64,000 bases of DNA from an uncultured Actinomycetes bacterium (GCA_963815895.1 CAWFIP010000001.1:88519-152518), one strand, 5' to 3'; positions 1,259 through 14,497 are shown, numbered from the stretch's first letter. Notes: generated from the sequence alone by a model not told the origin. Translations and numbers: made by a program.

Positions 1259-2506
1259 ATGCTGTTCCTCGCGCTCCCGCTCGGCGCGGAGGGCCGGCCC
1301 GAAGCGGCGTCGATCCACGTCCGCAGCAACGCTGAGTTCGCCGCCGCGGTTGCCAAGCTTCGCTACCGCAGCGGCACGATCCACCTCCGCCGTCACGTCT
1401 ACCGGGGCGAGCTCGTGGTCCCCTCGCGTTCGGCGCGGCAACTCCGAATCGTCGGCGAACGCGGAGTCATCGTCGAGAGCCTGCTCCTCGACCACACCCA
1501 GCACGTGACGGTGAAGGGGCTGACGATCAAACCTGTCACCGAGGACGGCTGGCTGAAGATCTACCGCTCGAAGCACATCGAGCTGAACGACGTACTCGTG
1601 ACCGCAGAGCACACGCGCCTCCGCGCGACCGTCCACATCCCGAACTCGAGCCACGTCCTGATCCGGAACAGCGAGTTCCGACGGTGCGGCGACCGCTCCG
1701 TGCTCTTCTCGAACTGCCTCCACCTGCAGCAGCGCGCGCGGCACATCACTGTCCTGAACAACTGGTTCCATGACTGCCGAGGTTGCGACTTCATCCATGG
1801 CAAGTTCGGCTATGGGCTGACGCTGCGCGGGAACCGCTTCGAGCGCGCGCTCCCGTGCAGGATGAACCGCCACCGCTGCGGCCACCAGGACCTCGTGTCG
1901 CTCTGGTCCGGCAGCAAGCTGCTCGTCGAGGACAACACATTCGGCGTCTACAAGAACGGCGCGGCGCAGCTCTATCTGATCGGTGCCGTCGATCGGGTGA
2001 CGATCGTGAACAACGTGTTCAATGGCACCGACCCACGCGTGCCCGGGTACCACGCTCGCGTCGCGATCATCGTCGGCAGCAAGCGGATGAAACGCGTTCC
2101 GCGGCGCGTCCGGATCGTGAACAACACGGTCCTCACCGGCGCGAAGCGCATCGACGGCTACGCCGGCTCGATCCGCATGAGCGGCGTCTACTGGCGCATG
2201 CAGCGCCACAAGCGGCCGATCCTCGCGAACAACGTCCTCGGTCTGGTCGAGGAGCCGCACTACGTGTGCAGCGTCGCGCGCCTCGCGATCTCCAACGTCG
2301 TGCTGCGTGGAAGCCGGTGCAACGGCATCAACCGCCTCGGCCGGGCTCATCTCGATGCACGAGGCCGTCCCACCGCCGCGTCCTGGCTGCTCATCGACCA
2401 GGCGGACAGACGCTTCGGCGCGCGGCGTGACATCGTCGGGCGGCTACGCGACGAGTGGCCGGACATCGGGGCGTACGAGTACCGCCCCAGCAAGCCGGGG
2501 AGCTAG
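1259..2506 (+). CDS. Right-handed parallel beta-helix repeat protein (pectate-lyase fold), probably secreted
   Basis: 415-aa ORF with repeated ~22-25-aa turns carrying Asn/Ile/Val ladders (HVTVKGLTI, HIELNDVLV, HVLIRNSEF, ITVLNNWF, LTLRGNRF, LLVEDNTF, VTIVNNVF, VRIVNNTV, ILANNVL). The N-terminus is hydrophobic. The frame is open from 1199, so a non-ATG start slightly upstream is possible. Confidence 0.6.
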   Translation: MLFLALPLGAEGRPEAASIHVRSNAEFAAAVAKLRYRSGTIHLRRHVYRGELVVPSRSARQLRIVGERGVIVESLLLDHTQHVTVKGLTIKPVTEDGWLKIYRSKHIELNDVLVTAEHTRLRATVHIPNSSHVLIRNSEFRRCGDRSVLFSNCLHLQQRARHITVLNNWFHDCRGCDFIHGKFGYGLTLRGNRFERALPCRMNRHRCGHQDLVSLWSGSKLLVEDNTFGVYKNGAAQLYLIGAVDRVTIVNNVFNGTDPRVPGYHARVAIIVGSKRMKRVPRRVRIVNNTVLTGAKRIDGYAGSIRMSGVYWRMQRHKRPILANNVLGLVEEPHYVCSVARLAISNVVLRGSRCNGINRLGRAHLDARGRPTAASWLLIDQADRRFGARRDIVGRLRDEWPDIGAYEYRPSKPGS

Positions 2507-2512
2507 CCAGTC

Positions 2513-5488
2513 CTAGCGTAGGTAGCGCTCGCGCTCCTCCGGAGTGAGCTCACGACCCGTCCGCTTCAGCCGTCTGTCGGCAAGTGCGAGGAGGTCGTCG
2601 AGATCACCACAGATCGTGCAGGCGTAGGTACGAACCGTCCCGTCGGCGCCGCCCGTCACGATCGTCCGCCCACCGTCGTCGAAGGCAACGGCGGTGACCG
2701 GCCCCACGTGCCCCTGGAGGCGGATGAGGGGTTCGGCCCCGAATGGGTCCCAGAGCGCCGCCCTCCCCGCCCCGGTCAATAGCCAGCGCCCGTCGGGGCT
2801 GAAGGTGACGTCGCTCACGGCCTGCTTGTGGTGTAGGGCATGACTCTGGCCTGTTGCGACGGTCCAGACACGTACGTCCCCGTCACGGCTCGCGGTCGCG
2901 AGCAATGCGCCGTCCGGCGTGAAAGCGACGGATCGAACGCGATCCCGATGACCTTTGAGGACTCTGGTCTCCTCGTTCGCCCGCAGCACGACGGTACTGC
3001 CGCGAATGGTTGCCGTGACCCCGTCTGGACCGACGACCTGGCGAGAACGAGGCTCGCCCCGCTCAAGGGCGATCGTCTTGCCACTCTTGAGATCGAGAAC
3101 GCGCACTTGACCATCCGACAACGTCGCTCGGATACGACGCCCGTCGCCAACGGCCACATCCGACACCGGCCGTGGGAGCCTCGCAAGTCGGCGCAGGACA
3201 GGCTGGTAGAGACCGTTCCAGATCCTGACCGTCCCATCGAGGCTCGCGGTCACGACCGAACTTCCCTCTCGCCCCGAGAAGGACGCGGACGTAATCCGTC
3301 CGTCGTGGCCGGAGTACGTCAACTGTGTTGCCCCGGTGTCCGCCCACGAGATACGAGCCGACCCGTCCTCGCTTCCGGTCACTACGAGTGCGCCGTCCGT
3401 GCTGAATCCGATGTCCCTGATGCTCGACGCATCGGTCTCGAGCGGCACGATCACCGAACCGCCACGGACGTTCCATAGTCGCGCCACGCCGTCCGAGCTC
3501 GCGCTCGCGATCGAGGTGGCATCGGGGCTGAAGGCGAGCGCGAGGATGTGGCCCTGGTCGATTACCGTGCGCAGCTGTCGACCGCCTGCAAGCCACAGCC
3601 GAATCGAACCATCGCTCGAGCCGGTCGCAATTGTCGTGTTGTCGCGGGAGATCGCCGCCGACTGGACGCCGGGATGTGCGTACCGCTGCAGCAGTCTTCC
3701 CGTACCGACGTCGATCAGGCTCGCACTTCCCTTCGACACGGCAACGAGTCGGGACGCGTCGGACGAAATCTCCGCGGCGATGACACCCGAGGCCCGGGGA
3801 ACCTCGAATGCGTCTCCATCCGGACGGATGACCGACAGCCCACCGTCGCCTTCCGTGAAGAGCGCTATCCCGTTGGCGGCAAACGAGACGTGACGGCCCG
3901 GTTGAGCCCTCCCGAGCGTAGCGAGGTCTCGACCGGTATCGCCGTCCGCGCTCATGAGCTGCCCGCTCGCAGTCGCGACCTCCACCCGGCCGGCGCGTAG
4001 GATCGCGCCAAGGAGCGGCTCACCGACGCGAACGACCGTCCTCACGTTCGACGCGACGATCGCCGACCTCAGGCCGGTCTCCGATGTCTCGGTATCAGCG
4101 ACCCGCGCGGCCTCGCGAGCGAGGACCAAGCTCAGCTCGGGATCCGGCGCAAGCATCGTCGACGAAATCGCCTCGAGTTGATGCGCGCGCGCCTCTTGCG
4201 CTTGCCGCTGCGCCTTGCTGCGCTGGGACAGCGCGAACGCGGTGACAGCGCTCATCAGCGCGAGCGCAACAAGCGCGAGTCCGAAGAGCAGGCGTAGCCG
4301 TCGGCGTCGCCTGCGACCTTCTGCGAGCTCGCGGTCGATCTCGCGGGCAGTTCGGTGCCTCGTGCGCCAGGCCAGCACAGGCTCGGCCAGAACGTCGTGG
4401 AAGATCTCGATCCTCCCCGCCTCGTCCGGGCGCACGATCCTGTGGTCCGAGAGCGTTGCGACCACGGGCGCCGCTGCGGTCTCCTCGACTCCGGCGTATT
4501 CGGCGAGGTCGTGGACCTCGTGAGCGATCTTGGTACCCGACGGCGTGACGAGGTACGTGAAGAGCTGCGCGGCGACGTCGCGCTCGTCGAGCGTCAGGCG
4601 CTCCACCGCGCGCTCGAGATGATCGGCGACGATCTGGCGTGGTCCTCCCAGAGCCTCGAGCGTCGTCGCCCGCAGACGTTCGGAGCCGTCTGAGCGCTCC
4701 TCTTCCCATAGGCGTTGCATGACGAGCTGGAGGTATGGCGCCTCGACCGCATAGGGCCGGCCGTTCCCCTCCACCGACCCGAGGCCGCCGGCCGCCAGCT
4801 CGATCTGCCCCGCACCCACGCCATCCAGCACTTCCTCCACCAGCGGCCGTTCCATTTCCACGCGCTCACCAGTGAGCTCGTTCCACCTCTCGACCGGCCC
4901 GGTGATCGCCATCCGACCGGCCGCCCGATCCATGCGGTCGAGCCTCAGCGAGTTCCCATAGATCGAAGGGATGCGTCGCTTGAACCGATCCAGCCGAGCG
5001 AGCGAGTCCTCACGCAGCGAGAGGAGCACATTCACCCGCAGCGGCTCTCCGACCACGCGCGCCAGTTCCGCCTCGAAGGGAACCTCGTTCGCCTGGTAGA
5101 CGAAGTACTCCTCGACCTGGTCGAGAAGGAGATAGACGTCATGCGACTGCTGCGTCCGCTCGACGACCTCGTGCAGGCCGCTTGCTGCACGCTCGCCGAG
5201 TAACTCGGCAACGTTCGCGGCAAGCTCGCCGGGATCGTCTCCCCAACGGTCGAAGAGGATCACGCGCGGCTCTTCAGGCAATTCCCGCAACGACCGTGCG
5301 ACGGATGCTCGCAGCAGGGATGACTTGCCGACGCCGCTGGGCCCGTAGAGCACCGTGAGGCGCGAGGCGATCAGGTTCGCGACGACGATCTCGCTTTCGC
5401 GCTCGCGACCGAAGAAGAGGAGCGCGTCGAGCTCGGAGTCCTCGAACGCGCTGAGCCCCTTGTACGGTGACGAAGGAACCGTGTTCAT
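2513..5488 (-). CDS. nSTAND/NACHT-like P-loop NTPase - single TM helix - WD40 beta-propeller protein (991 aa)
   Basis: Internal ATG at 5488 gives MNTVPSSPYKGLSAFEDSELDALLFFGRERE. Walker A is LYGPSGVGKSSLL and Walker B is VYLLLDQVEEYF. TM helix: LLFGLALVALALMSAVTAFAL. WD40 blades: SSDGSIRLW, SSDGVARLWNV, SEDGSARISW, SLDGTVRIWN, SRDGDVRVWTV, GADGTVRTY. The ATG overlaps the stop of the upstream gene (ATGA at 5485-5488). The 41-codon extension in the ORF track (to 5611) would lie inside the upstream gene. Confidence 0.85.
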   Translation of the reverse strand: MNTVPSSPYKGLSAFEDSELDALLFFGRERESEIVVANLIASRLTVLYGPSGVGKSSLLRASVARSLRELPEEPRVILFDRWGDDPGELAANVAELLGERAASGLHEVVERTQQSHDVYLLLDQVEEYFVYQANEVPFEAELARVVGEPLRVNVLLSLREDSLARLDRFKRRIPSIYGNSLRLDRMDRAAGRMAITGPVERWNELTGERVEMERPLVEEVLDGVGAGQIELAAGGLGSVEGNGRPYAVEAPYLQLVMQRLWEEERSDGSERLRATTLEALGGPRQIVADHLERAVERLTLDERDVAAQLFTYLVTPSGTKIAHEVHDLAEYAGVEETAAAPVVATLSDHRIVRPDEAGRIEIFHDVLAEPVLAWRTRHRTAREIDRELAEGRRRRRRLRLLFGLALVALALMSAVTAFALSQRSKAQRQAQEARAHQLEAISSTMLAPDPELSLVLAREAARVADTETSETGLRSAIVASNVRTVVRVGEPLLGAILRAGRVEVATASGQLMSADGDTGRDLATLGRAQPGRHVSFAANGIALFTEGDGGLSVIRPDGDAFEVPRASGVIAAEISSDASRLVAVSKGSASLIDVGTGRLLQRYAHPGVQSAAISRDNTTIATGSSDGSIRLWLAGGRQLRTVIDQGHILALAFSPDATSIASASSDGVARLWNVRGGSVIVPLETDASSIRDIGFSTDGALVVTGSEDGSARISWADTGATQLTYSGHDGRITSASFSGREGSSVVTASLDGTVRIWNGLYQPVLRRLARLPRPVSDVAVGDGRRIRATLSDGQVRVLDLKSGKTIALERGEPRSRQVVGPDGVTATIRGSTVVLRANEETRVLKGHRDRVRSVAFTPDGALLATASRDGDVRVWTVATGQSHALHHKQAVSDVTFSPDGRWLLTGAGRAALWDPFGAEPLIRLQGHVGPVTAVAFDDGGRTIVTGGADGTVRTYACTICGDLDDLLALADRRLKRTGRELTPEERERYLR

Positions 5489-7107
5489 GCCGCCGCCAGG
5501 CGCTGCTCGAGCAGCTCGACGTATGCCTGGGGATCGACGTCGAGCGCGGCCACGTCGAAGCTCCGCCAGAACGCCTGCGCGAGCAGGCTCGGCGAGCCCT
5601 GGACCGCCCACGACCGGTAGCCGACAGGACGGTCGCCCCAGATCCGGTGGAGGATGAGCCGCAGGCTCCAGTCGGCCATCTCGTACCCGAGGAACAGGAA
5701 ATGACTACGGCGCAGCTTCGCTGCGAGCGCGACCGGGACGACCGCGCTGAGATCGGAGCTTCCGAGGTACCCGATGTAGTCGTCCTCGGTGATGACGAAG
5801 CTCTCCCACTCCCGCTCGGGAAGCGGATCGACCGCGCCGTGGAGCTTCAACAGGATTGTCCGGCGCTCGAGCGAGAGCTCCGTCGCGTACGTGTTGGGCA
5901 CGTCGATCGGCCGCGGAGCTTCGCCCGGTGGGCGATGCCAGAAGCGGCCGCGGTGCGACCCGCTCGCCACGTACGCGACGATGTCGAGCTCCTCCCCCTC
6001 CTCCTCGAACGCACGCTCGAGAGCCAGGTCGAAGTTCGTGGTCACGATCAGCTGGTGCGGAGCGCCTCTCGCCCGGAGCAGCGCGGGTAACCGGGCGAGG
6101 AAGCGGTGCAGCGGCCCCGGCTCGACAGCGGCCTCGAAGAGCGCATGCAGCTCGTCGTAGAGCGGCCCGAACCCCTGCATCGTCGCCACGTACTGCGAGA
6201 TCCGCGCCAGATCTATGGGCCGGTCGTCGGGCACGTCGAACGCCCGGGCCAGGTGCGCCGCCAGATCTCCGGCGCCGTCGAGACCGATGACCGGGACCAC
6301 GCGACCTGCGACGATCGCCTTCACGATCTCGCCGTCCGCATCGCGGCTGCCGTTGGTGGGAGCGTGCCCGATCGCCGTGTCTTGCCGGAGGATCTCCGCC
6401 TGGAGTCGCCTCAGCTCTGGGCCCGGCTCGATACCTAGCTCGTCGACGAAGCGCGCGCGCGCGTCCTGGTACGCGTCGAGCGCCTCCGCCTGCCGTCCGC
6501 TGCGGTAGAGCGCCAGCATCAGCTGCCGGCGAAACGTCTCGCGCAGCGGATGCTCGCGGACGAGCGACTCCAGCTCGCCGACGACGTCGCCGTGGCGGCC
6601 GAGCTCGAGATCCGCATCGATGCGCTCCTCGAGCGCAACGACACGCAGCTCCTCCAGCCGTCGGATCTCGGGCTCTGCGAAGCGCTCGAACGTGAACTCC
6701 GCGAGCGCGGGGCCGCGCCACAGGCGAAGCGCGCTCTCGAGCAGGTCGCGCCGCGCCTCGGGCGCCGCGCGCCGCGCCGCGCGAAGCTGCGACTCGAACC
6801 GGTTCGCGTCCAGCTGCTCGGGTCGGATCCGGAGCACGTAGCCAGGCGCCTGTGTCGCGAGCACCTCGGGTCCGAGCTCGCGCCTGAGCCGCGAGACCGC
6901 GTTCTGGAGTGAGGTCGTCGCAGTCTTCGGCGCAGCCTCGCCCCACACCTGATCGACAAGACGGTCCGTCGCCACCACACGGCCCGCGTCCAGCACGAGC
7001 ACGGCGAGCAGTGCCCGCTGTCGCAGCCCCCCGACAGCGACCGAGCCGGCAGGTCCTTCGACCTCGAGCGGGCCCAGTATCCGGAAATCAAACGTCACAA
7101 GTGACAC
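5485..7107 (-). CDS. SARP-family regulator (OmpR-type winged helix + BTAD) fused to a C-terminal SIR2_2-like domain (540 aa from GTG 7107)
   Basis: wHTH: FRILGPLEVEG...LRQRALLAVLVLDAGRVVATDRLVDQVWGE...GYVLRI. BTAD: LWRGPALAEF...RQLMLALYRSGRQAEALDAYQDARARFVDELGIEPGPELRRLQAEIL. SIR2_2 landmarks: VVPVIGLDGAGD, LIVTTNFDLALERAF, ILLKLHGAV, FVITEDDYIGY, FLFLGYEMADWSLRLIL. Start chosen at GTG 7107 (alternative GTG 7098), because the longer ORF (to 7287) would swallow the SARP box at 7203..7220 and abut the divergent gene. Confidence 0.8.
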   Translation of the reverse strand: MSLVTFDFRILGPLEVEGPAGSVAVGGLRQRALLAVLVLDAGRVVATDRLVDQVWGEAAPKTATTSLQNAVSRLRRELGPEVLATQAPGYVLRIRPEQLDANRFESQLRAARRAAPEARRDLLESALRLWRGPALAEFTFERFAEPEIRRLEELRVVALEERIDADLELGRHGDVVGELESLVREHPLRETFRRQLMLALYRSGRQAEALDAYQDARARFVDELGIEPGPELRRLQAEILRQDTAIGHAPTNGSRDADGEIVKAIVAGRVVPVIGLDGAGDLAAHLARAFDVPDDRPIDLARISQYVATMQGFGPLYDELHALFEAAVEPGPLHRFLARLPALLRARGAPHQLIVTTNFDLALERAFEEEGEELDIVAYVASGSHRGRFWHRPPGEAPRPIDVPNTYATELSLERRTILLKLHGAVDPLPEREWESFVITEDDYIGYLGSSDLSAVVPVALAAKLRRSHFLFLGYEMADWSLRLILHRIWGDRPVGYRSWAVQGSPSLLAQAFWRSFDVAALDVDPQAYVELLEQRLAAA

Positions 7108-7156
7108 TAACTCCGCCGAAAGCGGTGTGTCCAGGGGTTCTTCGCTTTCTTTGCAT
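7088..7156 (-). CDS. Candidate 22-codon upstream/leader ORF (MQRKRRTPGHTAFGGVSVTCDV) preceding and overlapping the SARP-SIR2 start
   Basis: Minus strand reads GGAAGGAGGgtcgcgcATG: a strong SD (7172-7164), a 7-nt spacer, then ATG at 7156. The ORF is out of frame with the main gene. Its TGA stop (7090-7088) lies 5 nt past the GTG at 7098. It is too short for the ORF track. Confidence 0.3.
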   Translation of the reverse strand: MQRKRRTPGHTAFGGVSVTCDV

Positions 7157-7202
7157 GCGCGACCCTCCTTCCTGATCTGGCTCTTTCCATGAGACGAGAC
7201 AC

Positions 7203-7220
7203 CGCTCAAGAGGCGCTCAA
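7203..7220 (-). promoter_or_regulatory. SARP-type operator box 1: TTGAGCGcctcTTGAGCG (heptamer direct repeat, 11-bp register)
   Basis: Read on the minus strand from 7220 to 7203. It points toward the SARP-SIR2 operon. It is followed by 8 bp (gtgtctcg) and then TCTCAT. The uORF ATG lies 47 nt downstream and GTG 7107 lies 96 nt downstream. Confidence 0.6.
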
Positions 7221-7285
7221 CGGCCGTTGGTGCGCTGTTGGCGCGGTGTGACCGCATGGTTTGGGCGCCCTCCGACGGTGCCGCC

Positions 7286-8344
7286 ATGACTACTTCAGCT
7301 GCACGTCTCGTGAAGAGGGCGCTCCCAGTCCTCGCCGGCTCTCTCGTCTGCCTCCTCGTCCCCGCGGTCGCCGTCCAGGCGGCGCAGCAGGGCGGCTCCC
7401 CCTCAGGATGCTCGGGCGCCTTCGGATGGCCCGTGAAGCCGTTCGACCGGCCGCATCAGATCCGCGGCGCGTTCGGCGACCCGCGAACGCAGTTCGACGG
7501 CCCTCCCACGCTCTCCACCCTCCTCAACGGAGACGGGAAGTTCACGTTCCACGAGGGCGTCGACATCACCGCTCCCGATCGCACTGCGGTGTACCCGGTC
7601 GCATCTGGAACGGTCACGCAGGTCACGGACGAGTGGATCGGCGTCGACTGCGGCAACGGACGCGCGTTCGAGTACTGGCACATCGACGCCCGGGTCCGGA
7701 TCGGCCAGAAGGTCATCGCCGGCAAGACGCTGCTCGGGCGCATCCAGCGCTCCGAGGCCCACGTCCATGTGACGGTGCTGGAGCGGGGACGCGTAGTGAA
7801 TCCGGTCGCGCCGGCCCGCCTGTCGCCGTACCAGGACACGACGATGCCCGAGGTGCTGGACATCGCCGTCCGCCGGGACGAGCGAGGGCCCGACGAGATG
7901 CCGCAGGCCGTTCGCGGCCGCGTCTACCTGATCGCCGAGGCGATCGACACCACGGAGCCGATCGACACGCCCGGCCTGCGCACGCCGACCATCTACCGGA
8001 ACTGGCCCACCACGCCGGCGCGGATCACGTGGCGCGTCGAGCACTGGAACGGCCGGGTCGCCGTTCCCGAGCGCGTCGCACGCGACGTTCGGCAGTCCAT
8101 CCCGTCCGACGACCGCTTCTGGAGCTCATTAGCGCGCGGCACGTATCAGAACCAGTCCGTCTTCGGATCGCACTACTCGTACCTCCAGCACGGCCGTTTC
8201 GTCTTCAAGCTGATGCCGCACCCGTTCGACACGCGCACGCTCCATGACGGCGTCTACGACCTCGTGGTCACGGCGACGGACATCGCCGGACATGGCGACT
8301 CGGCGCGCTTCCGCTTCACGGTCAGAAACGGCGCGGACGTTTGA
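7286..8344 (+). CDS. Secreted M23 (LytM-type) metallopeptidase family protein
   Basis: Signal-like N-terminus MTTSAARLVKRALPVLAGSLVCLLVPAVAVQA from ATG 7286. M23 motifs are HEGVDITAP (HxxxD) and EAHVHVTV (HxH). Confidence 0.8.
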   Translation: MTTSAARLVKRALPVLAGSLVCLLVPAVAVQAAQQGGSPSGCSGAFGWPVKPFDRPHQIRGAFGDPRTQFDGPPTLSTLLNGDGKFTFHEGVDITAPDRTAVYPVASGTVTQVTDEWIGVDCGNGRAFEYWHIDARVRIGQKVIAGKTLLGRIQRSEAHVHVTVLERGRVVNPVAPARLSPYQDTTMPEVLDIAVRRDERGPDEMPQAVRGRVYLIAEAIDTTEPIDTPGLRTPTIYRNWPTTPARITWRVEHWNGRVAVPERVARDVRQSIPSDDRFWSSLARGTYQNQSVFGSHYSYLQHGRFVFKLMPHPFDTRTLHDGVYDLVVTATDIAGHGDSARFRFTVRNGADV

Positions 8345-8367
8345 GCCGATCGTGTCACAGGCGCAAG

Positions 8368-8398
8368 GGGAAGCCCTCTCGCAGCGGAGAGGGCTCCC
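8368..8398. terminator. Hairpin between convergent genes (putative bidirectional terminator)
   Basis: GGGaAGCCCTCTC-gcagcg-GAGAGGGCTCCC: ~12-bp GC-rich stem with a 1-nt bulge. It lies between the stop of 7286..8344 and the stop of 8418..9599. There is no clear U-tract. Confidence 0.5.
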
Positions 8399-8417
8399 AC
8401 CCAATGCGCCGGCGGCT

Positions 8418-9599
8418 CTAGCCCCCCTGTTGAGTCTTGCCGGCGCCGGTTCCGCTGTCGGCCTTCTCGGCCTTCGCGGCCGCTCCCGTTTCCCCCGCGG
8501 AAGCGATGTCGGTCGGTACCTTCGTGAACCGCTCGAAGAAGCCGGAGAAGAACGCGAGGATGCCGTAGTAGGCGTAGTCGCGGTCCACCCCGGGTGTCTG
8601 CGTCTGCAGGATCCCGCTCGCGAGCAAGAGGAACGTCGCGACACCGAAGACCCCACCGACGAAGGGACGGTAGATCCCGAGCCAACGCACGTTGGCCCGC
8701 CCGACCTCGAAGTCGAGTGTGAACTTCGACTCGTCGGTCGAGGCCATGCGCTGCAGCACGCTCAGAAATGCGCCGAGCGCGCCGGCCATGACGCTGATGA
8801 TGAACAGCTGGAGCTCTCCCCAGTGCGCCGGGCCACCGTCGAGGCTGTCGACGGGCCACGTGAGCCCGACGGTCATGGCCGTGACCAGTGCGAGGACGAG
8901 CAGGCCCTGCACCATGCCCCAGAAGAACAGGATCTTCCCCTGCCCCTCGCCGGTGCGCCTGTAGAAGCTCGCGACGTCGGCGAGCTCACTGCGCTGCTCG
9001 TGCACGAACTCCTTGCACTGCGCCTGATGGACCCAGTCCGGCGCTTGCAGCCCGGCGGCCGCGGGCGGTGCTTGACGACCCCACTCGCGGTCGACGTATC
9101 CCAGCAGCTGGCTTGCCACAGCGTTGATGCGGCGCAACGCGATCAGCTCACTCGGGCCGCGCAGGATCTCCTCGACCCGGACGGCAAGCGACTCGCAATC
9201 GTCGAGCGCCCTGGCAACCTCGGGCTCGTCGCGGGTAGCCCAGTCCGTCACGCGGTGAAAGCGCGGGATGTGCTCATGACCCCACAGGCGCACTGTCCTT
9301 CGCCGCTTCTTCACCGAGAACGCGACCGCCGAGGCATCGCGGACCGACCAGTACGCGTTCTTGATCTGGCCGTACTTGTGCTCGAACAGGGCCCACTTGC
9401 GCTTGAAGTCGTCCTCGAGTGTGGAGTCTGACCGGAGACTCTCGCGAGCCCCGTCGTAGAGCTCGAGCTCCCACGCCCGGTGCGCGCGGACGAGATCGGG
9501 AAACGTCACGAACTCGGAAGCATCGTCTCGCCCGGCACCGTTGGTCGCGGCTCCAGGCCCGACCCTCGCCTTCCCCGCGACCGCGGTTCCTGTTGCCAT
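8418..9599 (-). CDS. Hypothetical membrane protein: ~230-aa helical soluble N-domain plus four C-terminal TM helices
   Basis: ATG 9599 is preceded by GGGAGGttcgcgtg. Predicted TM segments: ILFFWGMVQGLLVLALVTAMTVGL, LQLFIISVMAGALGAFLSVL, PFVGGVFGVATFLLLASGIL, YAYYGILAFFSGFF. I recognise no family. Confidence 0.6.
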   Translation of the reverse strand: MATGTAVAGKARVGPGAATNGAGRDDASEFVTFPDLVRAHRAWELELYDGARESLRSDSTLEDDFKRKWALFEHKYGQIKNAYWSVRDASAVAFSVKKRRRTVRLWGHEHIPRFHRVTDWATRDEPEVARALDDCESLAVRVEEILRGPSELIALRRINAVASQLLGYVDREWGRQAPPAAAGLQAPDWVHQAQCKEFVHEQRSELADVASFYRRTGEGQGKILFFWGMVQGLLVLALVTAMTVGLTWPVDSLDGGPAHWGELQLFIISVMAGALGAFLSVLQRMASTDESKFTLDFEVGRANVRWLGIYRPFVGGVFGVATFLLLASGILQTQTPGVDRDYAYYGILAFFSGFFERFTKVPTDIASAGETGAAAKAEKADSGTGAGKTQQGG

Positions 9600-9852
9600 C
9601 ACGCGAACCTCCCACTTGGTCCGCGCCGCATACGGACGAATCGCACGCAGGATAGGCCAGCGACCGTCCAGGCTCAAGAGTTGCTCTGCACGAACGTCTG
9701 CGCGCGCAGGTTGGTGCTGAACACGACCAGCCCTATATCGCGATCTGGACGACCTCTCCACGCGGGTGTGCGCGCGAGATTTCACGGCATGCGCCACGAC
9801 CACTGATCCCCATTCGGGCGCACGAAATTCACAGGTTGAAATTGCACGGCCA

Positions 9853-9892
9853 TTAGCCGCCCGTTAGCCGCCTGTGGCTGCGGCGTTAGCGG
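9853..9892 (+). promoter_or_regulatory. Second 11-bp-phased heptamer array: TTAGCCG (9853), TTAGCCG (9864), degenerate TGGCTGC (9875), TTAGCGG (9886)
   Basis: Direct reading of ccaTTAGCCGcccgTTAGCCGcctgTGGCTGCggcgTTAGCGGtc. It ends 50 nt upstream of the micro-ORF ATG at 9942. Confidence 0.4.
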
Positions 9893-9941
9893 TCGGCCCG
9901 AGCGTGACCGGCGCACCCAAGAACCCGGAAGGAGGGGAACG

Positions 9942-10052
9942 ATGCGCCAGGTCAAGTCACTGCACGCGATGCTGGTCGTGCTTGCGGTTGGTCTGCTCGC
10001 GCTCGCGGCTCCGCTCGTCGCGTATGCCGACGGCGGCCCCAAGGGCGGCTGA
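9942..10052 (+). CDS. Unlisted 36-codon ORF encoding a signal peptide plus a 7-residue tail: MRQVKSLHAMLVVLAVGLLALAAPLVAYA/DGGPKGG
   Basis: Strong SD GGAAGGAGGGG 5 nt before ATG 9942. The N-region (RQVK), H-region and AYA cleavage-type motif are present. TGA at 10050-10052. A 13-bp hairpin follows immediately. It is below the length cutoff of the ORF track. Confidence 0.45.
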   Translation: MRQVKSLHAMLVVLAVGLLALAAPLVAYADGGPKGG

Positions 10053-10073
10053 TGCCACAGCACGAAGCGAGAC

Positions 10074-10102
10074 GAGGGAGGCCCGCATCGCGGGCCTCCC
10101 TC
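10074..10102. terminator. Perfect GC-rich hairpin between the convergent micro-ORF and the SARP-cyclase gene
   Basis: GAGGGAGGCCCGC-atc-GCGGGCCTCCCTC. The right arm overlaps the TAG stop (10104-10102) of the minus-strand gene. Confidence 0.6.
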
Positions 10103-13100
10103 TATGCGGAGACGCTCAGTTCGAGGAGACCTCGCGCGGTCGCGACGCCGACAACGTTGCCCTTTTGTGCGAACAGCGCGATCGCGTCTTCGATGGCTCG
10201 ATTGGCCGCGGCGTGCAACTCGCCAGTGCGCAGTACCTCCGCGAGCGCAAGCCTCGTTGCGGCGATCCGGTTGAGCCCATCGGTCCGATCTGCGAGGCGA
10301 ACGACCTCCTCGGCGAGCTCGCGTGCTTTCTCGACCTCTCCTCTCCGTGCGAGAAGCCTTGCCTCGACCGGGCCGAGCACGAGTTGGACGCTCTGGTCGT
10401 CGCTCGCGGCGTTGGCACGCGCGACGATCATCCACTGTTCAGCCTCGTCGATTCGATCCTGTCTATAGATCGCGTCCGCGAGTTTCGCGGCCCTGACTGC
10501 GAAGTGGCTCAGGTCCTGCGTGCGCTCCAGGTACTCGCATTGGTCACGGAGCGTACGCTCCGCGGCTGGAAGATCGGAGGCGAGCAGCTCGATGTCGGCC
10601 GCCACCGTTCCGCAATGCACGACGGCGGCTCCCGATGCGCCCAACTCCTCGAGTGCATGTCTCGCCTCGGCAATGAGCTCCCGCGCATGGTCGAAGCGGC
10701 CGACCTGCGCATGCAGACCGCCCAGATACGGGATGACCGACGCCCGACCCGCATGCCCGATCGTCTCGTCAGCGAGAAGCCCGGCGCAGCCTTCGATGCC
10801 CATGGTCACAGGAGTTGGCCCCCAATACGTTGCTGCCGCGATTTGTCCTAGACATGTGGCTGGCGGGAATCCGGTGATCCGGTAGTACTCGAGCGCGCGC
10901 TCTTCTGCTTCTCTCCAGGCGGTGTGGTTCCCGTGGATCCCGCCGCGGACGTATCCGAGGAGGAGCCACGCCCGAGCGAGGGAGCGATTGTCCGCTACGG
11001 CCTCGAACACGGGCACTGCCCTTTCGGCCACCTTGATCAGCTCCCGCGCCGCACCTTCGGGCTCAGTGAGAAGGCGCAGGTATGCAGCTTCGATCCTCGC
11101 ACGCAGCTCAACTCGTCGGTGCCCAGCGCGTTCCGCCCCGTCGATTGCCTCGAGCAAGGTCATGTTGCTGGCCTTGGACTGTCCCGCCGCATCACGAGCG
11201 ACGCCGAGTTCGCACATGAGCTCGTAGTGCGCCTCTTGCTCGCGCGGGAGCAACGGAATCGCCCGCTCCAGCAGGCTGATCGTCGCGGGCATGTCGCCGC
11301 GCTTGAGTGCTCGGAAGCCGGCGTCGCCGAGCCGGCGCCCGGCTTCCTCTGCGAGTCGCTTGGTCCTGCGATCGGACTCCCCCAGCTCTGTTCGCAACCG
11401 ATGCGCCTGCTCGAGGTGGTAACCGGCGAACTCATCGAGATCCGCAGGCTCGTCGTCCCGGCCCTCGAAGCGGTCGATGAAGCGCTCGTGCAGGTCCGCG
11501 CGGAGACGCTTCGGGGCCGCGCGGTAGACGGCCTCCTGCACGAGAACGTGGCGGAATCGGAACCGGCCGGGGTCAGACGGCCGCACGAATCCGCGGGCCG
11601 ACAGCGCCTGCATGTGCACCTCGGAGGTTGGCGCCGCCTCAGGCTCGAGCAGCGCGGCAACGTCGTCGAGACGGAACTCCTTCCCGATGACTGCCCCGCG
11701 CTCGAGCACTGCCCGCTCCCCGGGTCCAAGCCGGTCGAGGCGCGCGGCGAGGAGCGCCTGGACCGTCTCCGGAAGCCTTCCCTCGGCGAGCCCGCCTTCG
11801 AGCGCCAGCGCGAGCAGCTGCTCGAGGAAGAACGGGTTGCCCTCGGCAGTCGCGACGATGCGATCGCGTTGATCGGACTCGAGCACGGCCCCGCCGAGGT
11901 GATCGAGGAGCGTATCCGTCTCGTCCGCGGACAAGGCATCGAGCACGAGGTAGTCGGCGCTCGGCAGGCCGTCGAGGAATGCCGGCCGTTCCTCGAGGAG
12001 CTCCTCGCGCGCGATGCAGACGACGAGGATCGGGGCCTCGCCCTTGCCGGCCAGGTGCTCGACGAGCTCGAGGAACGTCGGCTCGGCCCAGTGGACGTCG
12101 TCGAAGACGAGGACGAGCGGCCGCTCGCGGCCCAGCGCCTCGCAGAACTGCCGGAAGAGCCAGGCGATCTCGGGCGCGGGCGGCGGTGTCTCGGCATCGA
12201 GCGCCGCGAGCACGGCGTCGCGTTGCTCGCCTTCCGGGGCATCGGCGAGCACCTCGCGCAGCGGCCAGTAGGTGATGCCCTCCCCGTACGAGAGGCAGCG
12301 ACCCCAGAGTGTCGTCACGTCCTTCGCGCGGCCCGCGAGCTCGGCGACGAGGCGTGACTTCCCCGCACCAGGATGACCGACGACAACCTTCGCGCGGGCT
12401 GTGCCGGTCTCCACGGCTCGCTTCAGCGCTCTGCGGAGCGCCGTCAGCTCGCGCTTGCGTCCGACGAGCGGCGCGTCGAGCCGGCTCTCGAACGCTGGAC
12501 CGACGGGCTCGAGCTCCAGGAGCCGGTACGCACGTACCGGGTCTCGCTTGCCCTTGATCTCGAGCTCGCCGAGCGACTCGAGCTGCGCGGCGTGGTCGAT
12601 CAGCCTGGCGGCCACCTCGCCGACGACGATCTCGCCGTCGCCCGCAGCCTGCTCGAGCTTGGCGGCGATGCCGACCGCCTCGCCGGTGACGAGCCGCTGC
12701 CGGGCGTCGGTCGTCGTCGCGACGACCTCCCCCGACTCCAGGCCGATGCGGACCTCGAGCCCCACTCCGAAGTCCGAGACGAGTCGCTCGTTGAGAACGG
12801 CAAGCCCTGCCCGGACGTCGAGCGCCGCGCGGGCTGCGCGAAGCGCATCGTCTTCGTGGGACACGGGGATGCCGAACGCCGCCATCACGGCGTCGCCGGC
12901 GTACTTCTCGACCGCGCCGCCGTGTCGCGTGATCGCGGCGGACACCGTTTCGAAGTAGCTCTGCAGGACGCGTCCGAGCGCCTCTGCATCGAGCGCTTCC
13001 GCGAGCGCCATCGACTCGACGACGTCACAGAAGAGGATCGTGACGAGGCGCCGGAACTGCATCGACGGCCCGGCGCGCGCGGTCTCCTCGAGCAGCAGGG

Positions 13101-13860
13101 ACTCGTCCTGCCGCAGGATCGCCGACTCCAGCTCCTTGAGCTCGGGCCCCGGATCGAGGCCGAGCTCGTCGAGCAGCGTCTCGCGCGCGGCGCGGAACGC
13201 GGCAAGTGCGTCTGCCTGACGCCCCGACCGGTAGAGCGCGAGCATGAGCTGCCCGCGCGGCCGCTCGCGGAGCGGGTGGGCCTGGACGAGCGCCTCGAGC
13301 TCCGAGACGAGCTCTGCGTGGCGGCCGAGCGCGAGATCGGCGTCGATCCGCTCCTCGAGGACGACGGTGCGCAGCTCCTCGAGGCGGGCGATCTCGTTCT
13401 GCGCGAACGGCTCGTAGACGAAGTCGGCGAGCGCCGGGCCGCGCCAGAGTGCGAGCGCCTCGCGCAGCGACGCCTCGGCGGTCTCCGTGCTCCCGGCCTG
13501 GAGCGCCTCCCGCCCCTCGTCCGTGAGGCGTGCGAACACATGGAGGTCGACCGACCCCCGGTCGAGCTCGAGCGCGTACCCGGGTGGTCGCGTGACGATG
13601 ACGGGCCCCAGCGCCTTCCGGAGCTGCGAGACGTACACCTGGACTGCGTGCGGGGCCGAGTCCGGCGTTTCCCCCGGCCAGAGCGCTTCCACGAGCCGGT
13701 CAGCAGAGACGACGCGACCGAGATCGAGCGCAAGCACCGCGAGCAGCGCCCGCGGCTTCGCGCCCCCGAGCGTGACGAAGCGGCCGTCCTGCACTGCCTC
13801 GAGCGGGCCGAGCAGCCGTAGCTCGAGCTTGCGATCGCCCCCCTGACGCGATCCGCTCAT
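10102..13860 (-). CDS. SARP (wHTH+BTAD) - class III adenylate/guanylate cyclase - STAND/AAA ATPase - TPR multidomain regulator (1252 aa from ATG 13860)
   Basis: wHTH: LRLLGPLEAVQDG...PRALLAVLALDLGRVVSADRLVEALW...GYALEL. BTAD: LWRGPALADF...GQLMLALYRSGRQADALAAFRAARETLLDELGLDPGPELKELESAILRQD. Cyclase: VTILFCDVVESMALAE, KYAGDAVMAAFG, VRIGLESGEVV. Walker A: VVGHPGAGKSRLV. The C-terminus is long, helical and TPR-like. The ORF-track N-extension (to 14115) was rejected. Confidence 0.85.
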   Translation of the reverse strand: MSGSRQGGDRKLELRLLGPLEAVQDGRFVTLGGAKPRALLAVLALDLGRVVSADRLVEALWPGETPDSAPHAVQVYVSQLRKALGPVIVTRPPGYALELDRGSVDLHVFARLTDEGREALQAGSTETAEASLREALALWRGPALADFVYEPFAQNEIARLEELRTVVLEERIDADLALGRHAELVSELEALVQAHPLRERPRGQLMLALYRSGRQADALAAFRAARETLLDELGLDPGPELKELESAILRQDESLLLEETARAGPSMQFRRLVTILFCDVVESMALAEALDAEALGRVLQSYFETVSAAITRHGGAVEKYAGDAVMAAFGIPVSHEDDALRAARAALDVRAGLAVLNERLVSDFGVGLEVRIGLESGEVVATTTDARQRLVTGEAVGIAAKLEQAAGDGEIVVGEVAARLIDHAAQLESLGELEIKGKRDPVRAYRLLELEPVGPAFESRLDAPLVGRKRELTALRRALKRAVETGTARAKVVVGHPGAGKSRLVAELAGRAKDVTTLWGRCLSYGEGITYWPLREVLADAPEGEQRDAVLAALDAETPPPAPEIAWLFRQFCEALGRERPLVLVFDDVHWAEPTFLELVEHLAGKGEAPILVVCIAREELLEERPAFLDGLPSADYLVLDALSADETDTLLDHLGGAVLESDQRDRIVATAEGNPFFLEQLLALALEGGLAEGRLPETVQALLAARLDRLGPGERAVLERGAVIGKEFRLDDVAALLEPEAAPTSEVHMQALSARGFVRPSDPGRFRFRHVLVQEAVYRAAPKRLRADLHERFIDRFEGRDDEPADLDEFAGYHLEQAHRLRTELGESDRRTKRLAEEAGRRLGDAGFRALKRGDMPATISLLERAIPLLPREQEAHYELMCELGVARDAAGQSKASNMTLLEAIDGAERAGHRRVELRARIEAAYLRLLTEPEGAARELIKVAERAVPVFEAVADNRSLARAWLLLGYVRGGIHGNHTAWREAEERALEYYRITGFPPATCLGQIAAATYWGPTPVTMGIEGCAGLLADETIGHAGRASVIPYLGGLHAQVGRFDHARELIAEARHALEELGASGAAVVHCGTVAADIELLASDLPAAERTLRDQCEYLERTQDLSHFAVRAAKLADAIYRQDRIDEAEQWMIVARANAASDDQSVQLVLGPVEARLLARRGEVEKARELAEEVVRLADRTDGLNRIAATRLALAEVLRTGELHAAANRAIEDAIALFAQKGNVVGVATARGLLELSVSA

Positions 13861-13942
13861 CTCCAACCCCACATGTGCCTTTTGGGACGATCTAGCTTCG
13901 CACGCGCAAGCCCCGGCGTCTATCGCGCGGACGATTTCGTGC

Positions 13943-13960
13943 TTGAGCGCTCCTTGAGCG
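13943..13960 (+). promoter_or_regulatory. SARP-type operator box 2: TTGAGCGctccTTGAGCG
   Basis: Lies in the divergent intergenic region. Followed by 8 bp (gcggggtc) and then GACAGT. ATG 14018 is 58 nt downstream. Confidence 0.6.
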
Positions 13961-14017
13961 GCGGGGTCGACAGTGACGTGCATGCACACGAGACCCGCAC
14001 GCCGAAAAGGAGAACTC

Positions 14018-14413
14018 ATGGCTGCCTTCATCGTCCTCCCCGCATCCGCGGGCGAGACGTCTCGCCCAGGAGCTCGGCTCAACATCTTCCCGGGCTCCGC
14101 GACGCCGGCGGTCATGACCGCCGATGCGCCCTTCTGGATCGGCTACGGGTTCGTCCCCGAGCCGAGCGAGCCGGACCCGGAGGGCAGCTGGGCGAGGGAC
14201 GAGGAGACGAGATTCGAACTCCTGGTGGACGCCGACCTGGTGTCGCTCGACACCGATCTGACGGTCGACGGGGAGCGCGCGGTCAGCAAGCTCAGCGTCG
14301 CCATCTTTCCCGATGGGCTCGCGGCGGGCTGGCATCGGTTCTCCGGCCGCTGGTTCGAGGCGGGCTCGCTCGTTCTCACGAGCGAGCGCTCGATCGAGTT
14401 CGTCGAACGTTGA
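14018..14413 (+). CDS. Hypothetical 131-aa protein (no signal peptide seen)
   Basis: AAGGAGaactcATG at 14018: MAAFIVLPASAGETSRPGARLNIFPGS...WFEAGSLVLTSERSIEFVER. I recognise no family. Confidence 0.6.
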   Translation: MAAFIVLPASAGETSRPGARLNIFPGSATPAVMTADAPFWIGYGFVPEPSEPDPEGSWARDEETRFELLVDADLVSLDTDLTVDGERAVSKLSVAIFPDGLAAGWHRFSGRWFEAGSLVLTSERSIEFVER

Positions 14414-14427
14414 GCGCTTCTTGAGCG
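14410..14427 (+). promoter_or_regulatory. SARP-type operator box 3: TTGAGCGcttcTTGAGCG
   Basis: The first heptamer overlaps the TGA stop (14411-14413) of the preceding gene. Followed by 8 bp (ccaccggc) and then GATTAC. GTG 14498 is 71 nt downstream. Confidence 0.6.
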
Positions 14428-14497
14428 CCACCGGCGATTACTTCCTCCGCATGAACAGCATGCACCATGACCCACGCGGAGAGACGGGAGGTCAGTC

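Follow-up and report, generated by a model that had tools for sequence, protein, structure and literature searches.

Proteins of the STAND/NLR kind are known from two cytoplasmic roles, immune sensing and the regulation of transcription, and SIR2_2 domains are known as effectors that destroy nicotinamide adenine dinucleotide (NAD). The NADase of Avs5 (AVAST type 5) is switched on when SIR2 and NOD assemble together into filaments (PMC11897194), and the NADase activity of ThsA is abolished by mutating either Asn112 or His152 (PMC7272460). SARP regulators bind repeats at intervals of 11 or 22 bp, each protomer taking one repeat beside its neighbour (PMC10936776); in their target promoters about 8 bp separate the 3' repeat from the -10 element. 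Here we describe two overlapping minus-strand genes in a 64,000-nucleotide stretch of DNA from an uncultured Actinomycetes bacterium (GCA_963815895.1, CAWFIP010000001.1:88519-152518; the window below), in which a SARP head is fused to a SIR2-type module (gene 1) and a second gene encodes an nSTAND1 nucleoside triphosphatase (NTPase) with a predicted transmembrane (TM) helix and a WD40 propeller (gene 2).

Judged from sequence comparison, the locus appears to be the SARP-headed branch of a widespread two-gene module that couples a SIR2-fold protein to a membrane nSTAND1 NTPase. The reading that we favour, to which we give an even chance of being correct, is that it encodes a transmembrane signalling pathway that regulates its own expression and has been assembled from an Avs5-like SIR2/STAND module. 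The gene pair is apparently both widespread and undescribed: literature searches for nSTAND1 with SIR2, for BTAD with SIR2 and for SIR2 with STAND and WD40 found no description of the pair or of a SARP-SIR2 fusion, the current SARP classes (small, medium, AfsR-like and SARP-LAL) do not include this architecture, and it is not in the 2026 census of AfsR-like regulators. This agrees with a first-pass annotation of the same DNA, made from the sequence alone, which knew of no described system of this composition.

Conservation of the gene pair

The two genes and their junction are listed below, with the basis of each call in brackets.

5485..7098, minus strand: gene 1, SARP-SIR2 protein, 537 aa from GTG 7098 to the stop TGA 5487-5485 (open reading frame (ORF) call, start codon verified, length and domains of homologs)
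2513..5488, minus strand: gene 2, nSTAND1-TM-beta-propeller protein, 991 aa (ORF, Pfam, orthologs of 990-1005 aa, AlphaFold2 model with a predicted local distance difference test (pLDDT) score of 84)
5485..5488, minus strand: ATGA stop/start overlap, translational coupling (equivalent overlap in 55/56 related junctions)

As the first-pass annotation had read it, the gene 1 TGA (5487-5485) overlaps the gene 2 ATG (5488-5486) by ATGA at 5488-5485, where the minus strand reads GCGGCGGCATGAACACG, the sequence across the whole junction being GGCGGCATGAACACG. Its claim that the two genes form one operon is supported by the census of related loci, a gene-neighbourhood comparison of the kind it had suggested. 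The census took one genome per GTDB species and covered at least 80 loci at 45-88% identity, a sample biased toward similarity to the query; altogether 82 loci (80 scanned and two fetched earlier) were annotated with local hidden Markov models. They belong to Gaiellaceae and other Actinomycetota, Chloroflexota, Acidobacteriota, Gemmatimonadales (Gemmatimonadota) and deltaproteobacteria, and therefore to at least five phyla. An nSTAND1-TM gene follows directly downstream on the same strand in 80 of the 81 assessable loci, so that the absence of the partner beside gene 1 homologs, which the first-pass annotation had named as a refutation, was not seen; of the two loci without a partner, one ends at a contig edge and the other (L048) is frameshifted. 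Wherever a start could be assigned to the partner, the junction had the identical four-base stop/start overlap (ATGA, GTGA or TTGA, written NTGA below) in all but one case (55/56), across phyla.

Other evidence comes from natural fusions. In locus L053 an uninterrupted ORF (9239-13612) encodes SARP-SIR2-nSTAND1-TM-WD40 in 1458 aa from stop to stop, with the catalytic His replaced by Leu, and in protein P0385 the SIR2 module stands immediately N-terminal to nSTAND1 as an in-frame fusion; proteins of the order nSTAND1-HEAT-SIR2 also occur, so that independent fusions exist in both domain orders. Because of the conserved adjacency, the NTGA junction and these fusions, there is little doubt, on comparative grounds, that the two proteins would work together. 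Most apparent SIR2 and nSTAND1 single proteins among the cluster representatives were rejected as frameshifted gene calls with out-of-frame, Arg/Pro-rich junctions; P0385 and L053 are the only two taken to be real fusions.

Used by itself as the query, the SIR2 module matched 2,794 of 1.84 billion cluster representatives, 643 below 1e-30. Most are proteins of about 320 aa consisting of the SIR2 module alone; in the others the module lies C-terminal to SARP, Ser/Thr kinase, XRE-HTH or CHAT(-TPR) heads, or after nSTAND1-HEAT. By these comparisons the conserved unit is SIR2 plus nSTAND1-TM-(WD40), and the SARP head is a lineage-specific addition and not the core of the system: most relatives are headless, and others have cyclase, CHAT, kinase or XRE-HTH heads.

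In five census loci from Chloroflexota and deltaproteobacteria an apparent N-terminal class III nucleotidyl cyclase domain replaces the SARP head and the NAD-site motifs are intact; the domain is confirmed by Pfam in L057 and L058, and L064, L078 and L079 have the same N-terminal motif. Locus L045 has two tandem SARP-SIR2 and nSTAND1-WD40 pairs (3170-14799), both with Arg for the catalytic His, and two metagenome bins each have two separate copies (L016/L019 and L034/L035), which shows that paralogous expansion occurs.

The SARP-SIR2 protein and its NAD site

The domains and residues of gene 1 are as follows.

6838..7023, minus strand: OmpR-type winged-helix DNA-binding domain, Trans_reg_C (PF00486, E=1e-9; NCBIfam AfsR SARP region, 4.6e-60)
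6388..6813, minus strand: BTAD domain, full length (PF03704, E=2.7e-48)
5488..6351, minus strand: SIR2_2-type module with a defence-type sirtuin fold (PF13289, 5.1e-20; AlphaFold2; Foldseek)
6265..6300, minus strand: first beta-strand and degenerate Gly-rich loop, VVPVIGLDGAGD (provisional coordinates, computed by hand from residue numbers; family alignment and per-locus table)
6034..6036, minus strand: Asn at the catalytic position (TTNFD), equivalent of ThsA Asn112 (HMMER alignment to 6LHX, codon verified)
5839..5841, minus strand: His at the catalytic position (KLHG), equivalent of ThsA His152 and DSR2 His171 (alignments, codon verified)

The protein has the defining feature of a SARP, an OmpR-type winged helix followed by BTAD, and the homologs share the same three Pfam domains (Trans_reg_C 1e-9, BTAD 2.7e-48, SIR2_2 5.1e-20). 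All domain calls of the first-pass annotation for both genes were confirmed by Pfam, including a significant match to SIR2_2, and the two residues that it had named as catalytic were borne out as well, since in the phmmer alignment to Bacillus cereus ThsA the TTNFD Asn matches Asn112 and the KLHG His matches His152. An AlphaFold2 model of the SIR2 module, for which 33 diverse members of the family were used, reached a pLDDT of 89.3 and a predicted template-modelling score (pTM) of 0.89, and its best PDB matches in Foldseek (probability 1.0, TM-scores about 0.6-0.66) were all defence-type SIR2 NADases: KomC, ThsA, DSR2, Avs5, SIR2/HerA and SPARSA.

The Gly-rich loop differs from this picture of intact motifs. 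The window protein reads VIGLDGAGD, with about 25 residues deleted relative to the family consensus VVPFLGAGVNL, whose LGAGVN aligns with FVGAGVS of the validated NADase DSR2, and the canonical GAGV(S/N) NAD-binding loop is degraded here. The loop is shortened and altered in most SARP-headed proteins and differs even inside the subclade of the window protein (for example GLDSAAD and GVEGAGE). A reading of the gap after strand 1 as harmless, on the grounds that the ThsA loop is also short, was dropped given the DSR2 alignment and this variability, and the gap is taken as degradation of the NAD site.

Loss of the catalytic Asn follows the type of head. It is kept in all 23 non-SARP loci of the census (headless 17/17, cyclase-type long heads 5/5, CHAT-headed 1/1) versus 29 of the 59 SARP-headed loci, where it is replaced by Ser in 17, Ala in 6, Arg in 6 and Gly in 1 (Fisher p = 4.5e-6); the catalytic His is replaced in 6 of these 59. 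In an independent set of cluster representatives it is kept by 66/71 headless proteins, 21/22 with other heads, 6/8 with CHAT, 3/11 with SARP and 0/4 with XRE-HTH; DNA-binding heads keep it in 3/15 and all others in 100/111 (Fisher p = 2.4e-8). Ordering by neighbour joining placed several kinds of Asn replacement in separate lineages. Because the deep-branching SARP-SIR2 proteins retain all NAD-site motifs, the erosion seen in the SARP-headed clade is, as these alignments indicate, a derived state. The earlier idea of a NAD-consuming enzyme is doubtful for this clade: the fold and the catalytic Asn and His are present in the window protein, and against it stand the loss of Asn in 30 of 59 SARP-headed loci and the degraded Gly loop of the window protein.

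The nSTAND1 protein and its predicted topology

Gene 2 has the following parts.

4316..5467, minus strand: nSTAND1 NTPase domain (PF20703, 1.8e-45; Walker A GPSGVGKS at 5344-5321; Walker B VYLLLDQVEE)
4226..4294, minus strand: single TM helix (RLLFGLALVALALMSAVTAFALS), with RRRRRR just before it (hydropathy; inside model helix 401-445)
2621..4045, minus strand: about 14 WD40-type beta-propeller blades, probably extracytoplasmic (Pfam WD40, 2.7e-54; AlphaFold2)

Pfam assigns residues 8-391 to nSTAND1 (1.8e-45) and scores seven WD40 repeats (2.7e-54). The nSTAND/NACHT-like NTPase seen in the first reading is thus substantiated as PF20703 with intact motifs, the Walker A (GPSGVGKS) and Walker B (LLLDQVEE) residues being invariant among 52 orthologs of gene 2. 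The single TM helix and the multiple WD40 blades of that reading also stand, with a blade number of about 14 as against the seven scored by Pfam: the AlphaFold2 model (pLDDT 83.6) comprises the NTPase (residues 1-390), a long helix (401-445) holding the TM segment, a helical linker, a propeller of about 14 blades and about 56 strands (residues 482-956, pLDDT >90) and a helical tail.

By hydropathy analysis, residues 399-421 form a single strongly hydrophobic helix (Kyte-Doolittle 2.4) after a run of six arginines. Such a helix follows the NTPase in 60 of 61 scorable partners, and its N-terminal flank is the more basic one in 58 of 61 (mean Lys/Arg 5.6 N-terminal versus 2.9 C-terminal). With a single TM helix, the positive-inside rule predicts a cytoplasmic NTPase and a C-terminal propeller that lies outside. 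The L078 partner, which has no WD40 repeats, continues after the TM helix with long Pro/Thr-rich linkers, and such linkers are typical of exported proteins.

The rates at which the parts evolve are unequal. On the same contigs the orthologs of gene 1 are 77-92% identical to the window protein and those of gene 2 are 50-62% identical. Per-domain identity, taken from 15 close orthologous pairs, is 83% for SIR2, 70% for BTAD, 62% for the NTPase, 61% for the winged helix, 39% for WD40 and 35% for the post-TM linker. The propeller is thus the variable part, which is what a ligand-binding sensor would be expected to show.

The C-terminal tail of gene 2 (residues 957-991; 2516-2620, minus strand) has an invariant CxxC (C957, C960) and a helical RLxxTGRELTxxERERYL motif, and is 53% conserved versus 39% for the propeller. 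Some partners have other modules in place of WD40 after the TM helix: TPR repeats in L080, a long coiled coil with a small unknown domain in L068 and L076, and Pro/Thr-rich linkers with Cys-containing unknown domains in L078.

Repeat array and start of gene 1

Upstream of gene 1 lie two further elements.

7199..7253, minus strand: five 11-nt direct-repeat units, GTCACACCGCG / GCCAACAGCGC / ACCAACGGCCG / TTGAGCGCCTC / TTGAGCGGTGT, a putative SARP binding site
7088..7170, minus strand: Shine-Dalgarno sequence AAGGAGG (7170-7164) and leader ORF (7156-7088), whose stop overlaps the start region of gene 1

A SARP-type box had been noted at 7203..7220. It is real and family-wide, and its extent is larger than was stated: TTGAGCG-N4-TTGAGCG (7220-7203) is the 3' end of an array of about five units (7253-7199). 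When exact 7-mer direct repeats at spacings from 7 to 33 were scanned for in the 300 nt upstream of 42 SARP-headed genes, a spacing of 11 nt was found in 17 loci, 22 nt in 7 and 32 nt in 5, and each other spacing in 0-4; no headless locus had an 11-nt-spaced repeat (0/16 versus 17/42, p = 0.0025). An array usually comprises 3-6 units, with TCACGG, CAACGG and TAACGG among the core sequences, and the sequence shifts between lineages while the spacing stays constant. This spacing agrees with the 11- or 22-bp rule for SARP sites (PMC10936776).

The true start of gene 1 is most likely GTG 7098, giving 537 aa, because the homologs measure 537-565 aa, and some uncertainty attaches to this assignment. 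A 600-aa ORF from ATG 7287 (5485-7287) was rejected as too long by the same measure, its first 63 codons being promoter region. The near-perfect Shine-Dalgarno sequence AAGGAGG at 7170-7164 is followed by ATG 7156, which opens a 22-codon ORF (MQRKRRTPGHTAFGGVSVTCDV) in the +1 frame relative to gene 1, with its TGA (7090-7088) 8 nt past the likely GTG. The same Shine-Dalgarno/ATG position recurs in four other loci: in L001, L012 and L013 it opens a short ORF of its own, the encoded peptides being unrelated, and in L008 it is in frame with the gene. The short ORF may be a coupling leader for gene 1. An Rfam search of the gene 1 leader gave no match.

Genomic context

One neighbour shares the region that bears the repeat array.

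7286..8344, plus strand: divergent gene for a secreted M23 metallopeptidase (PF01551; signal peptide, HxxxD and HxH motifs; start ATG 7286)

This gene and gene 1 are separated by a short divergent intergenic region, in which the array lies. An M23 homolog is divergent upstream in 38 of the 49 SARP-headed loci with enough sequence, within 600 nt in 22 of them, and one is also found in L002. The three genes form a conserved trio, and from this arrangement the M23 gene is probably a third conserved member of the system or a target of its regulation.

The window and its close relatives also share chromosomal synteny near uvrB, which takes in a polysaccharide deacetylase, a beta-helix protein and a SARP-cyclase-AAA-TPR regulator. 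No defence, plasmid or phage context was found around the pair in the window and the examined relatives, which lends no support to the antiphage and conflict systems with which the first reading had compared it. A defence-island setting for the ancestral headless form was likewise rejected, ten sampled flanking genes of headless loci being ordinary ones (MFS transporter, M16 peptidase, PAS histidine kinase, epimerase and TPR proteins). A tblastn search with the SIR2 module found no match in plasmid or phage collections, and a scan of viral contigs gave one distant match of 32% identity.

Other neighbouring genes may be mentioned here. A second large SARP protein of 1337 aa (10102-14115, minus strand; SARP-Guanylate_cyc-AAA_16-TPR) resembles PimR and SARP-LAL regulators; many Gaiellaceae loci have a gene of this type upstream of the pair, at a distance of 2-6 kb, and it shows a parallel design, with a nucleotide-handling domain between the SARP head and the ATPase. 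A 461-aa ORF (8418-9803, minus strand) had no Pfam match, shows hydrophobic stretches in its C-terminal half by eye and has homologs near the pair in five related loci. A right-handed beta-helix, NosD-like gene (1259-2506, plus strand) is convergent with gene 2, and its homologs lie downstream of the pair in six related loci.

Proposed pathway and alternatives

In the signalling pathway that we favour, gene 2 would encode a membrane protein whose NTPase faces the cytoplasm and whose propeller of about 14 blades lies outside; there the fast-evolving propeller would bind an extracytoplasmic cue and, by analogy with STAND biology, the NTPase would switch or oligomerise. The SIR2 fold of gene 1 would serve as the coupling module, docking on the NTPase and co-oligomerising with it, perhaps in the manner of SIR2 and NOD in Avs5 filaments, and the assembly would set SARP heads side by side on the 11-nt repeats in the operon's own promoter region. 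The output would be autoregulation, probably together with control of the divergent M23 peptidase gene, and the STAND protein would either activate the regulator or hold it at the membrane until a signal arrives. In evolutionary terms, the ancestral headless form may have been an Avs5-type NAD-depleting system split into two genes, with its sensor outside the membrane; where lineages have acquired DNA-binding heads, the output would have moved to transcription and the NAD site would be decaying, the SIR2 fold being kept mainly for STAND-dependent assembly. In the window protein, which has both Asn and His, residual or regulatory NAD-dependent activity may persist and would not be required.

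Several points weigh against this pathway. SIR2 is the most conserved domain (83%), which suits an enzyme too, and the subclade of the window protein (20 sequences) retains Asn, Asp and His, so that this protein could still be a working NADase; because of this retention, NAD-dependent activity of the window protein may be regarded as possible but uncertain. DNA binding, protein contact, topology and activity are predictions from sequence and models. A membrane-tethered DNA-binding complex would be plausible by the logic of ToxR and CadC. At the promoter, the TCTCAT hexamer 8 bp past the last heptamer is a weak match to a -10 element, and a simple scan for sigma-70 promoters and terminators over 2300-7400 gave no match in the region. 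The neighbouring SARP-cyclase-ATPase protein could be the binder of the repeats, although repeats are also present in loci where that neighbour was not detected. Finally, many census genomes are long-read metagenome bins, some of them frameshifted.

A more tentative extension of the signalling pathway, which we regard as possible and no firmer than that, is that there is a large, undescribed class of membrane-spanning STAND receptors with a rapidly diversifying propeller outside, which signal through a translationally coupled SIR2-fold partner, and that in Gaiellales-type Actinomycetota this immune-like NADase module has been domesticated, its SIR2 domain acting as a pseudo-enzymatic oligomerisation adaptor that loads SARP heads onto the tandem repeats and switches on a secreted peptidoglycan hydrolase.

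The best surviving alternative is a NAD-depleting conflict or anti-phage system, in which the STAND protein senses an invader, the SIR2 NADase causes growth arrest or death and the SARP head only provides feedback on expression or localisation. We consider it rather unlikely, yet a serious rival for the window protein, as its subclade keeps both the Asn and the His that, with the fold, match validated defence NADases. The precedent of Avs5 as a SIR2-STAND NADase, the definition of nSTAND1 in conflict systems (PMC8195603), the resemblance of the CHAT, cyclase and kinase heads to the effector sets of such systems, the fast-evolving sensor and the paralogous or tandem copies in several genomes (L045, L016/L019, L034/L035) are all in keeping with it. 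They are countered by the loss of Asn in about half of the SARP-headed and in 4/4 XRE-HTH-headed proteins, by a GAGV(S/N) loop that is degraded and variable even inside the window subclade, by stable synteny with ordinary neighbours, by the absence of the module from the plasmid and phage collections and its near absence from viral contigs, and by a predicted extracellular sensor, which differs from known phage-sensing STANDs. PADLOC, which the first-pass annotation had recommended, matched no system model and no Avs at the locus, giving only weak SIR2-domain matches to ThsA models.

In the next alternative the SIR2 module is a ligand-sensing input, binding NAD, ADP-ribose or a related nucleotide without turnover and tuning the SARP head to the metabolic state, with the STAND-WD40 protein as a second, independent input. 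The His and the fold are strongly conserved and the Asn and the Gly loop are variable, as is typical where an enzyme fold has become a binding domain, and the SARP-cyclase-ATPase-TPR regulator in the window shows that nucleotide-handling domains are joined to SARP heads in this lineage, as in PimR-type regulators. We nevertheless judge this improbable: the N112A mutant of ThsA loses NAD binding along with catalysis (PMC7272460), so that NAD may not be bound at all by forms without the Asn, and this reading explains neither the natural fusions nor the near-absolute NTGA coupling to the STAND gene. Chance overlap of two functionally unlinked genes, for which it may be said that 4-nt overlaps are generally frequent in compact genomes, is negligible in view of the pair's retention in 80 of 81 assessable loci across phyla, the same overlap in 55 of 56 assignable junctions and the independent fusions in both domain orders.

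If the signalling pathway is correct in outline, this family bridges immune STAND/SIR2 proteins and transcription regulation. The same two-gene core occurs with an intact NADase site in headless forms, or with DNA-binding heads and a decaying site, so that a change from effector to regulator can be studied within one family. A STAND sensor outside the membrane, as predicted here, would, if true, widen what bacterial NLR-like proteins can sense, and with the locus the SARP regulators gain a class that had gone unrecognised, in abundant but uncultured soil Actinomycetota.

Comparison with known systems

The locus departs in defining features from each of the closest known systems, which are taken in turn here. 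The nSTAND1 conflict systems of multicellular bacteria (Kaur et al. 2021, PMC8195603) belong to the same NTPase clade and share the general plan, in which a regulatory NTPase is combined with effector or adaptor heads and repeat sensors that both vary. They differ in having N-terminal effector-associated domains or effectors on the NTPase itself and FGS or lectin sensors, and a separate SIR2 gene with an NTGA junction, a post-NTPase TM helix and a SARP head are not described there.

Thoeris ThsA, DSR2 and KomC provide the closest folds, and their TTNxD and K-x-H-G motifs are present in the window protein; sequence identity, however, is only 14-22% and the Gly-rich loop of the window protein is degraded. 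Unlike ThsA, gene 1 has neither a SLOG domain nor a TIR partner, the neighbours being the M23 peptidase, the beta-helix protein and the SARP-cyclase-ATPase, which places the locus outside Thoeris. The pair also lacks the C-terminal sensor of DSR2 and the KomB partner of KomC.

SARP-LAL regulators such as PimR, which binds heptameric direct repeats, likewise combine a SARP head, a nucleotide-handling domain and a STAND-like ATPase, and one is encoded 3 kb away (10102-14115). They are single cytoplasmic polypeptides with a cyclase-like domain, not SIR2, and have no TM helix or WD40.

Avs5 (PDB 9jap, 9nc9) shares with the window pair a defence-type SIR2 fold tied to a STAND NTPase with a repeat sensor; its SIR2 domain is among the Foldseek matches, and single-chain relatives of the present module exist (L053, P0385). 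In contrast with Avs5, the window pair consists of two polypeptides with an NTGA junction and an NTPase of the nSTAND1 type, has a TM helix between the NTPase and a probably extracellular WD40 propeller, carries a SARP head in a clade where the NAD site is eroding, and shows no defence-island context and no Avs match in PADLOC.

AfsR-type large SARPs (SARP-NB-ARC-TPR, Streptomyces) resemble the locus in having an N-terminal SARP governed by a STAND NTPase with a repeat sensor, and in target sites that are direct repeats at 11-bp spacing. Here, in contrast, the NTPase is of the nSTAND1 and not the NB-ARC type and belongs to a separate membrane protein, a TM helix followed by WD40 repeats takes the place of the TPR sensor, and a SIR2 fold stands between the SARP and the NTPase. 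Given these differences in NTPase and sensor, the two are alike by convergence, and the initial idea of an AfsR split into two polypeptides has to be abandoned. If a SIR2 effector has indeed been domesticated in this clade, the family would be a natural case of an immune effector turned into a coupling device for a transcription factor, and a convergent route to AfsR-like regulators.

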